From: a virus
Lineage: Duplodnaviria; Heunggongvirae; Uroviricota; Caudoviricetes
Reading direction: 5' to 3' (one strand)
Length of the DNA stretch: 45,889 nucleotides
Virus record (IMG/VR): IMGVR_UViG_2576861104_000010
Position numbers and translations under genes: made by a program
Part shown: piece by piece, positions 9,205 to 34,875 of the stretch
How positions within the stretch are numbered: position 1 is the stretch's first letter
How the letters are laid out: every line of letters begins with the position of its first letter
The notes under the pieces: model-generated
Told to the model about the DNA's origin: nothing
What the model saw: the letters and a program-made list of their open reading frames with translations, nothing else
Databases searched by the model: none

Positions 9205-9585
9205 CTACTCCGCAGAACCATACAATCTACGTAACGTGTCGGCGACAGAAGATACAGATATCTCTCCGGTCGCAGCCCCTACGGTAAGGTCTGCCAGTTC
9301 AGGTGAATCAAATACCTGCACCCCGTTACGGCGTAGAAATAACAGCGCACTGTTTAGCGCGGTACGCTTATTGGCATCATTGAATATATGCCCTCTCGCT
9401 GTAGCCACCAGGTAGGTGGCGGAGACTTCGAAAAGGTCGGTGATCTCTTCGTAGGCAACTCTGGCCTGAACTCTCCCGATAATGGCCTCTGCCCTACCCG
9501 GATCTGACATGCCCGGCAGGCCGCCGTAGCGGTTTATATTCGCATCATGAAGCGCAATAAGTTCTTCCGGTGATATATGCCTCAT
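9205..9585 (-). CDS. doc: Doc toxin (Fic-fold kinase), 126 aa
   Basis: Protein [25 protein letters not shown]...[23 protein letters not shown] is recognisably P1 Doc; translationally coupled to phd. Confidence 0.95.
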
Positions 9586-9982: not shown

Positions 9983-11545
9983 ATGAAAATGACAAGTATT
10001 CAACAACGTGCAGAGCTTCATCGTCAAATCTGGCAAATTGCTAACGATGTCAGGGGTTCGGTCGATGGATGGGATTTTAAGCAATACGTTCTGGGCGCAC
10101 TTTTCTACCGTTTTATCAGCGAAAATTTTTCCAGCTATATTGAAGCCGGTGATGACAGTATCTGTTATGCGAAACTGGATGACAGCGTAATTACTGATGA
10201 CATTAAAGACGATGCCATCAAAACCAAAGGCTACTTCATCTACCCAAGTCAGCTTTTCTGCAACGTAGCTGCGAAAGCAAATACTAATGACAGACTGAAT
10301 GCAGATTTAAACAGCATCTTCGTTGCTATCGAAAGTTCTGCTTACGGTTACCCTTCAGAAGCTGACATCAAAGGTTTGTTTGCTGATTTCGATACCACCA
10401 GTAACCGCCTGGGTAACACCGTTAAGGATAAAAATACCCGCCTGGCCGCGGTTCTGAAAGGGGTTGAAGGATTAAAACTTGGCGACTTCAACGAACATCA
10501 GATTGACCTGTTCGGCGATGCCTATGAGTTCCTGATTTCTAACTATGCGGCGAATGCCGGTAAGTCCGGCGGCGAGTTCTTTACACCGCAGCACGTCTCT
10601 AAGCTGATTGCACAACTGGCAATGCACGGCCAGACCCACGTTAACAAAATCTACGACCCGGCAGCAGGTTCCGGTTCGCTGTTATTGCAGGCTAAAAAGC
10701 AGTTTGATGACCACATCATCGAAGAAGGTTTTTTTGGTCAGGAGATCAACCATACGACCTATAACCTGGCGCGTATGAACATGTTTTTGCACAACATCAA
10801 CTACGACAAGTTTGATATCAAGCTGGGCAATACGCTGACTGAGCCGCACTTCAGAGATGAAAAACCGTTTGATGCCATCGTTTCTAACCCGCCGTATTCG
10901 GTGAAATGGATTGGCAGCGATGACCCGACGCTGATTAACGATGAACGTTTTGCCCCGGCTGGCGTTCTGGCCCCCAAATCCAAAGCTGACTTTGCGTTTG
11001 TATTACATGCGCTGAACTATCTTTCTGCCAAAGGTCGTGCTGCGATTGTCTGCTTCCCGGGCATTTTTTACCGTGGCGGCGCGGAGCAGAAAATCCGTCA
11101 GTATCTGGTTGACAATAACTATGTCGAAACCGTGATTTCACTCGCACCGAACCTGTTCTTTGGCACCACCATTGCCGTAAATATTCTGGTGCTGTCTAAA
11201 CATAAAACGGATACCAAAGTTCAGTTTATTGATGCCAGCGAACTGTTCAAAAAAGAGACTAACAACAACATTCTGACCGATGCCCATATCGAAAAAATTA
11301 TGCAGGTATTTTCCAGCAAAGAAGATGTTGCCCATCTGGCAAAATCTGTCGCGTTTGAGGCCGTTGTCGCGAATGACTATAACCTGTCAGTGAGCAGCTA
11401 TGTAGAAGTGAAAGATAACCGCGAAACTATCGATATTGCTGAGCTAAATGCTGAGCTGAAAACCACGGTCAGCAAAATCGACCAGTTGCGTAAAGATATT
11501 GATGCGATTGTGGCTGAAATTGAAGGCTGCGAGGTGCAGAAATGA
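9983..11545 (+). CDS. hsdM: Type I R-M methyltransferase subunit HsdM, 520 aa
   Basis: N6-adenine methyltransferase NPPY motif (IVSNPPYS), AdoMet-binding ([10 protein letters not shown]); 520 aa as in EcoR124-type HsdM; stop overlaps the hsdS start. Confidence 0.9.
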
Positions 11546-12771
11546 GCGAGTTGAGTTATCTGGAAAAATTGCTGGATGGGGTTGAGGTTGAGTGGGTACC
11601 TGTATCAGAACTATTTCAAATTAAAAATGGGTATACACCTTCAAAATCCAAGAAAGAATTTTGGGAGAATGGAACCATTCCATGGTTCAGACTAGAAGAT
11701 GTCAGAGTCAATGGTAGGGAATTAAATGATTCTATCCAACACATAAATCCATTAGGAGTTAAAGGTTGTCTGTTCCCGAAAAACTCTATTTTCATGTCTA
11801 CAACAGCTACCATTGGGGAGTATGCTTTAGTAAGGGTCCCTTATTTAACAAATCAACAAATCACAAACTTTTCCATTTCTGAAAAATTCAGTGAAGCGGT
11901 CAATATAAAATATATTTTTTATAGGTTTTATGATTTCGGCAAGTGGTGTACGGAGAATGCTAATAAAAGTGGTGGAGTATCTATAATTGGACTCAAAAAA
12001 CTGTCTCAATATCAGTTCCCAATCCCTTGCCCGGATAATCCGGAAAAATCCCTTGCCATCCAGTCTGAAATCGTTCGGATTCTGGATAAATTTACTGCAC
12101 TTACCGCTGAGCTTACCGCTGAGCTTAACATGCGTAAAAAACAGTACAACTACTATCGTGACCAGTTGTTGAGGTTTAAAGAGGGTGAGGTTGAGTGGAA
12201 GGCATTGGATGATGTTTTTGACATTGTTGCAGGCGGCGATGCACCAAAAGATGCCTTATCCGAATTTGAGACCGAGGAATTCAGCATCCCCGTTTTATCA
12301 AACGGTATAGGTAATAAATCACTATATGGATGGACTGACAGAGCCAAGATTGAGAAACCGAGTCTCACCATATCTGCAAGAGGTACTATTGGATGGACTA
12401 GCTATAGAAGTAGACCATTCTTTCCGATAGTGCGACTGCTGGTCTTGACGCCAAAAATTAAATTAAACTTGAAGTACGCTTATTACTTCATGAAAACCAT
12501 TGAGAATAATTACAAAATCCCTGAGGCAGGCATACCCCAGCTAACTAAACCGATGCTCAAAGACATTAAAATCCCCTTCCCATGCCCCGGTAATCCGGAG
12601 GAATCTTATAACGAACAAGCCAGAATCGCAGCGACTCTCGACAAATTTGACGTCTTAACAAATTCGATTACCGAAGGTCTTCCGCGTGAAATCGAGTTGC
12701 GCCAGAAACAATACGAGTACTATCGTGATTTACTGTTCAGTTTCCCAAAACCCAAAACTGTCAGTAATTAA
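11542..12771 (+). CDS. hsdS: Type I R-M specificity subunit HsdS, 409 aa
   Basis: Two target-recognition domains separated by a conserved central region ([24 protein letters not shown]) with a matching C-terminal repeat ([18 protein letters not shown]); ATGA overlap with hsdM. Confidence 0.85.
12103..12126 (+). repeat. Two tandem copies of a 12-bp repeat (ACCGCTGAGCTT) in the hsdS central conserved region
   Basis: Read directly; encodes TAEL-TAEL. In EcoR124I versus EcoR124II the copy number of this repeat sets the spacer length of the recognition site. Confidence 0.8.
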
Positions 12772-12892
12772 TTGACCATTGCTACAGACCGGCTCACCTT
12801 AACATCCGGTCAGTATATAGACTATTTTTTACACGCCGGAAGTCACTCTTAACTCCCTTCCGGCCCTTGCCAGACGGCACAAAGGATGCGCT

Positions 12893-15800
12893 ATGACTCA
12901 TCAGACACACACCATTGCTGAATCCAATAACTTTATCGTTCTTGATAAGTACATCAAAGCTGAGCAAACAGGCGACAGCTATCAGAGCGAATCGGACCTG
13001 GAACGTGAACTGATTCAGGACCTACAAAATCAGGGCTATGAATTTATAGCCGTAAAATCTCAGTCAGCGATGCTGGCCAATGCTCGGGAACAGCTTCAGA
13101 GCCTCAATGGTGTGGTGTTTAATGACAGCGAGTGGCGGCGTTTCACGGAGCAGTATCTGGACAACCCGAGCGATGGCATTCTGGATAAGACCCGTAAAAT
13201 CCATATCGACTATATCTGCGACTTTATTTTTGACGACGGGCGTCTTGAGAACATCTATCTGATCGATAAAAAGAATCTCATGCGCAACAAAGTGCAGATT
13301 ATCCAGCAGTTTGAACAGGCAGGTTCTCACGCTAACCGTTATGACGTAACTATCCTGGTTAATGGCTTGCCGCTGGTGCAAATCGAACTGAAAAAACGCG
13401 GCGTGGCGATTCGTGAAGCGTTCAACCAGATACACCGTTACAGCAAAGAGAGTTTTAACAGCGAAAATTCTCTGTTTAAGTATCTGCAACTGTTTGTCAT
13501 TTCCAACGGTACCGATACCCGTTATTTTGCCAACACAACAAAGCGCGATAAAAACAGTTTTGACTTCACCATGAACTGGGCGAAATCAGACAACACGCTG
13601 ATTAAAGACCTCAAAGATTTTACCGCTACCTTTTTCCAGAAACATACTCTGCTGAATGTTCTGGTGAACTACAGCGTGTTTGACAGTAGTCAGACGCTAC
13701 TGGTGATGCGACCGTACCAGATTGCAGCTACCGAACGAATTTTATGGAAAATCAACAGCTCCTATAAAGCGAAAAACTGGTCTAACCCCGAAAGCGGTGG
13801 CTTTATCTGGCACACCACTGGTTCCGGTAAAACACTGACCAGCTTTAAAGCCGCGCGTCTGGCAACAGAACTGGACTTTATTGATAAAGTCTTCTTCGTG
13901 GTCGACAGGAAAGACCTCGATTACCAGACCATGAAGGAATATCAGCGTTTTTCGCCAGATAGTGTTAACGGCTCGGAAAATACAGCAGGTCTTAAACGAA
14001 ATCTGGATAAGGACGATAACAAAATTATCGTCACCACTATTCAGAAACTTAATAACCTGATGAAAGCAGAAAGCGACCTGCCTGTATACAATCAGCAAGT
14101 GGTGTTTATATTTGATGAATGCCACCGCAGCCAGTTTGGAGAAGCGCAGAAAAACCTGAAGAAGAAATTCAAACGCTATTATCAGTTTGGTTTTACCGGC
14201 ACACCTATTTTCCCGGAAAACGCCTTAGGCTCAGAAACGACCGCCAGCGTATTTGGTCGTGAATTGCATTCGTATGTAATTACCGATGCGATTCGTGATG
14301 AAAAAGTGCTCAAATTCAAGGTGGACTACAACGATGTGCGGCCACAGTTTAAGTCTTTAGAGACAGAAACTGACGAGAAAAAACTGAGTGCGGCTGAAAA
14401 TCAGCAGGCGTTTCTTCATCCCATGCGTATTCAGGAAATCACGCAATATATTCTGAATAACTTCCGCCAGAAAACCCACCGTACCTTCCCTGGCTCAAAA
14501 GGTTTTAATGCTATGTTGGCAGTGAGCAGCGTGGATGCTGCAAAAGCCTATTACGCGACGTTTAAACGGTTACAAGAGGAAGCAGCTAATAAATCGGCCA
14601 CCTATAAACCGCTGCATATTGCGACAATCTTCTCCTTTGCTGCCAATGAAGAACAAAATGCCATTGGTGAAATTTCCGATGAAACTTTTGATACCAGCGC
14701 AATGGACAGCAGTGCTAAAGAGTTTCTTGATGCTGCAATTCGTGAGTATAACAGCTATTTTAAAACTAACTTCAGCACCGACAGTAACGGTTTTCAGAAC
14801 TACTATCGTGATTTAGCCCAACGGGTTAAAAATCAGGATATCGATCTGTTAATTGTCGTGGGGATGTTTTTAACTGGCTTCGATGCTCCAACATTGAACA
14901 CGCTATTCGTCGATAAAAACCTGCGTTTTCACGGCCTGATGCAGGCATTTTCCCGCACCAACCGTATTTATGATGCAACTAAAACCTTCGGTAATATCGT
15001 CACTTTCCGGGATCTGGAACGCTCAACTATTGATGCCATAACGCTGTTTGGTGACAAAAACACCAAAAATGTGGTTTTAGAAAAGAGTTATGCAGAGTAT
15101 ATGGAAGGCTTTACTGATGCTGCCACTGGTGAAGCTAAGCGCGGCTTTATGGCAGTAGTTTCAGAACTGGAACAACGGTTCCCTGACCCTGCCAGTATTG
15201 AAAGTGAAAAAGAGAAGAAAGACTTCGTTAAACTGTTTGGTGAATACCTGCGTGCCGAGAACATCCTGCAAAACTATGATGAATTTGCCACGCTGAAAGC
15301 CCTGCAACAAATCGATCTTAGCGATCCTGTTGCGGTAGAAAAATTCAAAGAAGAACATTATGTGGATGATGAAAAGTTCGCTGAATTGCAAACGATTCGT
15401 CTCCCTGCTGAACGCAAGATTCAGGATTATCGTTCTGCCTATAACGATATTCGTGACTGGCTGCGCCGTGAGAAAGAAGCTGAGAAAAAAGAGAAATCAA
15501 CCACTGACTGGGATGACGTAGTTTTTGAGGTCGATTTGCTGAAGTCTCAGGAAATAAACCTGGATTATATCCTTGGACTGATTTTCGAACACAACAGACA
15601 AAATAAAGGCAAGGGCGAAATGATCGAAGAGGTCAAACGCTTAATTCGTTCAAGCCTGGGGAACCGTGCTAAAGAGGGCCTGGTGGTCGATTTTATTCAG
15701 CAAACGAACCTGGATGATTTACCGGACAAAGCCAGCATCATTGACGCATTCTTTACGTTTGCTCAACGCGAACAGCAACGTGAAGCAGAAGCATTGATAA

Positions 15801-16009
15801 AAGAAGAAAATCTCAATGAAGAGGCAGCAAAACGTTATATTCGCACGTCTTTAAAACGCGAATACGCCACCGAAAATGGCACAGAATTAAACGAAACATT
15901 ACCAAAACTTAGTCCGTTGAATCCGCAATATAAAACGAAAAAACAGGCAGTTTTCCAGAAAATAGTCTCGTTTATTGAGAAGTTTAAAGGCGTAGGCGGA
16001 AAAATATAG
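12893..16009 (+). CDS. hsdR: Type I restriction endonuclease subunit HsdR, 1038 aa
   Basis: Helicase motifs (TTGSGKT Walker A, DECHRS motif II) and 1038-aa size typical of type IC HsdR; separate promoter region after hsdS. Confidence 0.9.
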
Positions 16010-16174: not shown

Positions 16175-16256
16175 ATTTTCAGCTCCTGTGATTGATTGGA
16201 TACATGCCGCGCCTTGCGGCATGTTTTTATTTTCACTTTCTCTGCTTTAAAAAGCA

Positions 16257-33453: not shown

Positions 33454-33674
33454 TTATCCACATTATCCACTGGATAGATCCAATAATTAGGTCCATACAG
33501 ATCCCAATTAGATCCATATAGATCCCTGATCGTTGCAGGCCGCGCCACGTCTGGCCTAGAAGTGTATCGCGATGTGTGCTGGCGGGAAAACGATGTGTGC
33601 TGGCGGGATAAAAATGTGTGCTGACGGGTTGCTAATGTGTGCTGGCGGGATATAGGATGTGTGCTGACGGGAAA
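33454..33674 (+). promoter_or_regulatory. P1-type plasmid origin oriR: tandem DnaA boxes, GATC heptamers, five RepA iterons (incC)
   Basis: TTATCCACA and TTATCCACT at 33454-33471; AGATCCA-type GATC repeats at 33476-33532; five 19-bp iterons GATGTGTGCTGGCGGGAAA-like at 33571-33674, directly upstream of repA. Confidence 0.8.
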
Positions 33675-34592: not shown

Positions 34593-34875
34593 TGTGTGCT
34601 GGAGGGAAGCTGCATTAAAAAAATGTGTGCTGCCGGGAAGGCTTGTCCAATTTCCTGTTTTTGATGTGCGCTGGAGGGGGACGCCCCGCAGTTTGCCCAG
34701 ACTTTCCCTCCAGCACACATCTGTCCATCCGTTTTTCCCTCCAGTGCACATGTAATTCTCTGCCTTTCCCTCCAGCACACATATTTGATACCAGCGATCC
34801 CTCCACAGCACATAATTCAATGCGACTTCCCTCTCTCGCACATTCTGGTCCTGCATCATCCCTCCAGCACACATC
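34593..34875 (+). repeat. incA copy-control iteron array (about nine 19-bp RepA sites in both orientations)
   Basis: Repeated GTGTGCTGGAGGGAA and its reverse complement TTCCCTCCAGCACACA directly downstream of repA. Confidence 0.8.

Follow-up and report, generated by a model that had tools for sequence, protein, structure and literature searches.

A two-unit TAEL repeat in an EcoR124-like hsdS gene of a P1/P7-like phage-plasmid, and variation of its copy number among relatives

The hsdMSR operon and its tandem repeat

We analysed a stretch of virus DNA of 45,889 nucleotides (Caudoviricetes; IMG/VR record IMGVR_UViG_2576861104_000010), referred to as the window throughout, and within it a short tandem repeat in hsdS, the gene for the specificity subunit of a type I restriction-modification system. 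The three genes of this system lie in the order hsdM-hsdS-hsdR, all on the plus strand. The first of them, hsdM (9983-11545), encodes 520 amino acids with N6_Mtase and HsdM_N domains, and its end overlaps by 4 nt with the start of hsdS (11542-12771). The hsdS product, a type IC specificity subunit by sequence, has 409 amino acids and two PF01420 Methylase_S domains. A gap of 121 nt precedes hsdR (12893-16009), whose product of 1038 amino acids shows HSDR_N, SWI2_SNF2, T1R_D3-like and EcoR124_C domains, the last of these matching PF12008 in Pfam at 6e-73.

The repeat consists of two copies of ACCGCTGAGCTT, arranged head to tail on the plus strand at positions 12103-12114 and 12115-12126 without a single mismatch. 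Tandem Repeats Finder reported the site as 12100-12127, with a period of 12, 2.3 copies and 100% matches. The periodic stretch is therefore 28 nt long, and the additional CTT upstream and A downstream of the pair supply more homology for misalignment. The pair is in frame with the open reading frame at 11542-12771 and codes for TAEL-TAEL, residues 188-195 of HsdS. A sequence-only reading of this DNA had placed two tandem copies of the unit within the conserved central part of hsdS, and both the sequence and Tandem Repeats Finder confirm this. No other perfect 12+12 tandem is present in the window; 0.003 are expected per window by chance, and only 1 of 500 shuffled sequences contained any. Within the hsdMSR region there was no further tandem array longer than 23 nt, the others being two- to three-copy arrays of 15-23 nt with Tandem Repeats Finder scores of 30-39.

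We compared the three proteins with those of EcoR124. HsdR matched EcoR124 HsdR (2w00_A) over its full length (residues 1-1038) with 2262 bits, and HsdM matched EcoR124 HsdM (7bst_D) over residues 1-520, again the full length, with 1150.7 bits. The match of HsdS to EcoR124I HsdS (7bst_A, UniProt P10485) was significant (4e-83) and confined to three blocks, namely residues 1-20, about 159-224 and about 354-409. Overall identity was 40%, nearly all of it within these conserved regions, and the central conserved region, including its two TAEL units, was identical in protein sequence to that of EcoR124I, with the N- and C-terminal conserved regions identical or close to it. Similarity extended to the DNA around the repeat, where the EcoR124II mutagenesis primers 'ctgcacttaccgctgagctt' and 'accgctgagcttaacatgcg' (PMC10644984) match the window exactly, with at least 8 nt on each side. 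A mark of type IC systems is a tandem array of four-residue repeats (TAEL, LEAT, SEAL or TSEL) within the conserved centre of HsdS (PMC10030836). In the window we found the operon order of the family, similarity of HsdM and HsdR, the HsdS conserved regions around two target-recognition domains (TRDs), and two TAEL units. Sequence similarity of HsdM and HsdR served here as a proxy for the complementation and cross-hybridisation by which the family is defined. Judged from sequence, the system is an EcoR124-family type IC restriction-modification system in every respect that sequence can address. The earlier comparison of this hsdS with that of EcoR124I/EcoR124II is borne out by operon order, HsdM and HsdR scores, conserved regions and the identity of the repeat DNA.

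The TRDs are a different matter, for neither of them matches those of EcoR124. Their alignment to EcoR124 was poor and rich in gaps, and the only significant similarity was that of the window's TRD1 to TRD2 of EcoR124, at 45 bits. Compared against the EcoR124I/II specificity pair (GAA...RTCG), the window's TRDs were not those of EcoR124; the half-sites must therefore differ, and the specificity is not that of EcoR124I or EcoR124II. P0048, an HsdS protein from an E. coli chromosome that has the window's TRD2, is labelled 'EcoprrI subunit S' by one source. It carries two TAEL units, whereas EcoPrrI has three (PMC3874165), and the name was not used to predict RTGC. The relation to EcoR124I (GAA N6 RTCG; plasmid R124) is therefore one of gene order, near-identical HsdM and HsdR, two TAEL units, and the repeat DNA with its flanks. 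EcoR124I differs in both TRDs and in its replicon, which is the R124 plasmid rather than a P1/P7-like phage-plasmid.

In an AlphaFold2 model of HsdS (mean predicted local distance difference test score, pLDDT, 85.9), a helix of 43 residues spans residues 167-209 and has residues 188-195 at its middle. This long central helix, at 12040-12168 on the plus strand, is also indicated by identity to EcoR124I HsdS (7bst_A). A second long helix, residues 352-398, corresponds to the C-terminal conserved region (12595-12735, plus strand) in both the model and the alignment with EcoR124I. By homology with EcoR124I, the two helices would be partnered in a coiled coil, and the modelled layout agrees with the description of the spacer of type I S subunits as a pair of helices (PMC3874165). 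TRD1 occupies a module at 11596-12016, and TRD2 lies at approximately 12214-12591, both on the plus strand. Beyond the coding sequences, there is a promoter-like site in the gap between hsdS and hsdR (12799-12828, plus strand), a candidate given by a consensus match alone, and a terminator-like hairpin after hsdR (16202-16224, plus strand), with a 10-bp stem followed by a T run.

Copy number among relatives

The number of units was counted in 5,426 complete E. coli genomes, with queries in which n units stood between two flanks of 20 nt each, and with E-value limits that were passed solely by a full-length match. One unit was found in 5 records, two units in 575, three in 408 and four in 15. 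Inspection of the sequences of one example with 1 unit and two with 4 units showed perfect tracts. The exact 24-mer was also present in 29 species representatives (one genome per species), with two units in 18 and three in 11, and both states occurred within Comamonas; such a scan selects for nucleotide conservation and is of no use as an argument for it. A sample that did not depend on the repeat was obtained by using the C-terminal conserved peptide to retrieve 80 loci from viral contigs. It contained 73 genes with at least two units, and the 49 distinct central-region haplotypes in the sample divided into 25 with two units and 24 with three. The notion that two copies are near-universal, as seen in 111 of 120 top protein homologues, was rejected. 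It reflected a bias of the ranking towards alleles with the query's TRDs, which the DNA census and the C-terminal-region sample corrected. The number of units clearly varies among relatives. Counting copies in relatives, which the sequence-only reading had put forward as a check, gave a positive answer, with 1 to 4 copies among relatives and some pairs that are otherwise identical.

The closest of these pairs differ by exactly one unit. The plasmids NZ_CP021203.1, with two units, and CP119117.1, with three (pair L052/L022), are both relatives of the window that carry its TRD2, and they align over 12,042 nt with 0 mismatches and one 12-nt gap. L056 (two units) and L055 (three units), both phage-plasmid contigs with a length of about 100 kb, align over 5,177 nt, again with 0 mismatches and one 12-nt gap. 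The third pair joins four units on an E. coli chromosome (L019) to three units in L084, over 3,076 nt with 0 mismatches and one 12-nt gap. In addition, there are six alleles in which a 2-unit and a 1-unit protein are otherwise 100% identical (P0029/P0061, P0031/P0062, P0090/P0096, P0122/P0123, P0130/P0129 and P0128/P0131), and one of them, the P0122 allele with the window's TRD2, forms a full series of 1, 2 and 3 units.

One-unit variants thus arise repeatedly from common two-unit alleles, in six independent alleles, and the L021 operon is annotated as intact. Exact look-ups, run for five of the six alleles that form 1-unit variants, found none of the corresponding three-unit versions, and these are weak negatives; a three-unit sibling was seen for P0122 only, through L018/L022. 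The repeated one-unit forms may reflect a bias towards deletion or selective pressure against specificity-changing gains. At the other extreme, the rare four-unit alleles of L019 (NZ_CP148583.1) and L020 (NZ_CP122941.1) lie in damaged operons; in one of them hsdM is frameshifted, and in the other an IS3 element truncates hsdS. Tolerance of four units may be largely limited to systems that are already inactive.

The spelling of the unit itself provided a further view of its history. In the repeat-independent sample the unit was spelt in 15 ways, for example ACCGCTGAGCTT, ACAGCAGAGCTT, ACCGCCGAACTT and ACAACCGAGCTT. The mean difference between these versions was 2.4 of 12 nt, a divergence comparable to that of the flanks (0.20 vs 0.25 per site). 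Within a gene, copies of the unit were identical in 91 of 97 pairs. When one representative was taken per unit type, unit 1 equalled unit 2 in 13 of 15 genes, a value reached in 0 of 100,000 permutations. Static old copies would have drifted apart, which argues that units have been continually re-duplicated and lost across the family. Such homogenisation is what the accepted unequal-crossing-over model predicts, and we did not find it stated in the literature that could be read.

Two further observations concern other loci. The exact E. coli-type repeat of 24-36 nt, with diverged flanks, occurs in hsdS of Comamonas, Simplicispira, Giesbergeria, metagenome-assembled genomes of Bdellovibrionota and two contigs of one Chryseobacterium assembly (L024, L026, L027, L029, L033, L037, L039, L040, L047 and L048). 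This could be due to wide horizontal spread or, for some of these loci, to contamination. Locus L102 (IMGVR_UViG_3300028603_000025) has two separate hsdS-like central regions with two ACCGCCGAGCTG units each, and may hold two specificity genes.

The hsdS allele of the window appears to have been assembled from modules that also exist apart. Its alignment with the nearest plasmid, NZ_CP021203.1, was lost exactly over TRD1 (11596-12016) and regained in the central conserved region, and this module was the sole stretch in about 12 kb that did not align with that closest P1-like plasmid. A break in homology limited to TRD1, with both ends at HsdS conserved regions, points to a clean module swap. 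To judge by these break points, the gene is a module recombinant, as known for the type IC hsdS family. The window's TRD1 also occurs in P0029, P0085 and P0081, and its TRD2 in P0031, P0079 and P0122. Elsewhere, the TRD2 module follows one, two or three TAEL copies (P0123, P0122 and L018/L022, respectively). A protein identical to the window's HsdS (P0001) is present on 24 contigs, invariably in the setting phd/doc-hsdM-hsdS-hsdR, and none of the complete E. coli genomes or PLSDB plasmids held more than 66% of the window's hsdS gene.

The spacer ruler and the pace of unit turnover

Two TAEL units specify the N6 spacer of EcoR124I, with 7 bp between the methylated adenines, and three units specify the N7 spacer of EcoR124II, EcoDXXI and EcoPrrI, with 8 bp between them (PMC3874165; PMC12707154). 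The literature thus agrees with the earlier statement that two versus three copies shift the EcoR124I/EcoR124II spacer by one base (N6 vs N7; PMC3874165). A unit corresponds to just over one helical turn, and each unit moves the TRDs about 0.34 nm farther apart and rotates them by about 36 degrees (PMC3874165). Hybrids of EcoR124 and EcoDXXI obey the copy-number rule irrespective of their TRDs (PMC3874165), and the unrelated TRDs of the window are without bearing on the ruler mechanism. EcoR124II, EcoDXXI and EcoPrrI have the family and the repeat unit in common with the window and illustrate the effect of gaining one unit, differing from it in their three units and N7 spacers (PMC3874165; PMC12707154). 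A changeable spacer ruler of this kind is textbook knowledge and is supported here (Price 1989; Loenen 2014).

A natural parallel is found in NgoAV of Neisseria gonorrhoeae, a type IC-like system in which variation in the number of tetrapeptide copies moves the spacer of the methylated motif by 1 bp. Gonococcal strains with one or two LEAT repeats methylate GAC N6 TGC or GAC N7 TGC, respectively (PMC6789123). The LEAT unit is unlike the window's TAEL unit in sequence. Moreover, the phase variation accepted for NgoAV is due to a homopolymeric G tract through which HsdS is truncated, and the window gene has no such tract.

We consider it highly probable that the repeat represents the two-copy state of the canonical TAEL ruler by which type IC HsdS subunits set spacer length, with recurrent gain and loss of units at low frequency. 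The two units lie in the middle of the central helix, which by homology with EcoR124I would run antiparallel to the C-terminal helix and so fix the distance and twist between the TRDs. Because the central region is identical to that of EcoR124I, the expected site of the two-unit enzyme is bipartite and spaced as in EcoR124I, with 7 bp between methylated adenines (written N6), and the spacer is expected to change by 1 bp per unit. A third unit would add 1 bp to the spacer, and the loss of one would shorten it or cripple the enzyme. The identical 12-bp units would occasionally misalign, by replication slippage or unequal crossing-over, and a unit would be gained or lost. As the S subunit is common to methylation and restriction, both activities would change target together. 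Such gain and loss would be recurrent on evolutionary time scales, making the site a mutational hotspot of low frequency, and would act alongside the swapping of TRD modules to diversify specificities on P1-like phage-plasmids. We infer the spacer effect in this allele, the molecular route of unit gain and loss, and its rate; slippage and unequal crossing-over are indistinguishable from sequence.

Several observations weigh against this interpretation. All retrievable copies of the window's TRD combination have two units (P0001 on its 24 contigs, P0002-P0004, and L007/L054). When the window's HsdS was looked up as exact 1-, 3- and 4-copy sequences, there was no match, and comparable look-ups for eight other alleles were mostly negative as well; these negatives are weak, since the same look-up also misses the 418-amino-acid three-unit HsdS of L018/L022. 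The latter is an annotated GenBank protein (CP119117.1), and matching 1257-nt genes suggest that it is present on at least 20 RefSeq plasmids, yet the look-up reports it as absent. Two of the 4-copy alleles lie in decayed operons. Finally, for the window's allele, both the length of the spacer and the way it varies with copy number are carried over from homologues.

Three other accounts of the repeat were considered, and they differ mainly in how fast, if at all, units change. That the pair has no functional meaning, having arisen through duplication by chance or through an assembly error, can be given almost no credence. Nothing was found in its favour, and it is already refuted by the expectation of 0.003 occurrences per window and by the fact that hundreds of independent assemblies, as well as the solved sequence of EcoR124 HsdS, have the identical arrangement. 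A more serious proposal is that the repeat is a static structural feature, the differences in copy number marking old lineages whose modules have been reassorted by homologous recombination without local gain or loss of units. TRD modules do reassort, since the window's TRD1 and TRD2 occur apart in other alleles and the boundaries of the swap lie at conserved regions, and the 2- and 3-copy forms are both old and widespread. However, the three pairs that are identical over 3-12 kb save for exactly one unit, the 1-copy and 4-copy derivatives of otherwise identical alleles, and the identity of copies within a gene even where the unit of that lineage has diverged at synonymous sites have largely refuted this proposal already, and we regard it as very improbable.

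The remaining account lies at the opposite end, and corresponds to a suggestion of the sequence-only reading, which had proposed slipped-strand gain or loss as a simple route to phase-variable restriction. The repeat would then be a true contingency locus, with reversible switching of copy number in a clonal population at a rate of at least about 1e-5 per generation, and with cultures consisting of mixtures of specificities. The zero-substitution pairs do imply that the site changes in less time than about 3-12 kb of flanking DNA takes to gain one substitution. Changes have occurred in both directions, as indicated by the series of 1, 2 and 3 units in one allele and by the 3/4 pair, and unit copies are homogenised across the family. 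The historical change from R124 to R124/3 is reported to have arisen spontaneously in the laboratory. Against this stands the tract itself, which, at 2.3 copies of a 12-nt unit, has just two 12-bp units where contingency loci have many-unit hypermutable tracts, and is far shorter than known phase-variable tracts. In a related allele, nine assemblies from three strain sets (405, four assemblies; 2020N21-110, three; 2022N21-074, two) all had a 1257-nt hsdS. Variant copy numbers in common 2-unit alleles amounted to about 1% of contigs or less (6 vs at least 1000, 4 vs 335, 7 vs 192, 4 vs 82 and 1 vs 44), and no variants of the window's allele were seen. A switch of specificity would also expose unmodified chromosomal sites and should be selected against. 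Switching at such rates is therefore unlikely in our view. What stands of the suggestion is that the repeat changes the spacer and that relatives vary in it; frequent switching is unproven, given a two-unit tract, an own allele that always has two units and the nine uniform assemblies, and the term phase-variable is probably an overstatement. We read the TAEL site as a mutational hotspot that clearly changes faster than point substitutions accumulate over several kilobases, and classical contingency-locus rates are not implied.

A slower version of the same idea deserves mention as a speculation, though we think it unlikely. The TAEL tract on P1-like phage-plasmids might be a genuine, slow contingency locus, in which changes of single units sustain subpopulations of N5, N6, N7 and N8 type and which, together with TRD swapping, would provide a mobile defence system with a built-in specificity dial. 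The homogenisation of units within genes across 15 codon variants, together with the zero-substitution pairs, points in this direction.

The phage-plasmid setting and its implications

Over its first 25 kb (1-25000), the window shows 97.8% identity to E. coli plasmids of ~96 kb, whose annotation includes cre, c1, coi, an antirepressor, terminases, lpa, phd/doc and tail genes. Flanking genes in the window are of P1/P7 type, and include doc, a DUF968 gene, the P1 late-promoter activator Lpa (PF25716) and a PNKP-like phosphatase. The terminase genes were assigned through the annotation of the matching plasmids, and the two open reading frames concerned had no match in Pfam. The doc toxin gene (Fic/DOC; 9205-9585) adjoins hsdM on the opposite, minus strand. 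Its partner phd is annotated in the matching plasmids, and an addiction module and a restriction system thus lie side by side on a phage-plasmid. The P7-like plasmid pMCR_SCKP-LL83 is reported to have the same arrangement (PMC5786510). From gene content and sequence, the locus is an EcoR124-family (type IC) system on a P1/P7-like phage-plasmid. Iteron-like direct repeats are present at 33474-33674 (a 21-nt unit, CGATGTGTGCTGGCGGGAAAA, in 5 copies) and 34702-34782 (a 31-nt unit in 2.6 copies), and probably belong to the P1-type plasmid replicon and copy-control arrays.

P1/P7-like plasmids such as pMCR_SCKP-LL83 (PMC5786510), p1002-1 (NZ_CP021203.1) and pCFSAN126948_01 (CP119117.1) resemble the window in having the system inserted between phd/doc and the PNKP-like phosphatase and pmgS genes. 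Their backbone is about 97-98% identical to that of the window, and TRD2 and the conserved regions are as in the window; the difference lies in TRD1, which is swapped at window positions 11596-12016. Among themselves, p1002-1 has two units and pCFSAN126948_01 three, in a 12-kb stretch that is otherwise identical.

The repeat with which this analysis began is already known, being the textbook feature letter for letter in a protein known to databases; the uncharacterised element is the pair of TRDs. Modestly new are the population census, the pairs in P1-like plasmids that lack any substitution, and the signal of homogenisation. The TAEL repeat is the textbook case of how a type I enzyme can be retargeted with its DNA-reading domains unchanged, and here a phage-plasmid bears a two-unit system of the EcoR124 family. 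In the window's plasmid family, changes of one unit have been very recent and repeated, and E. coli has all states from 1 to 4. These comparative results make the rate of switching, and the function of the natural one-unit and four-unit forms, directly measurable. For the transfer of DNA into strains with such plasmids, the number of copies predicts which spacer variant of the motif would be restricted.

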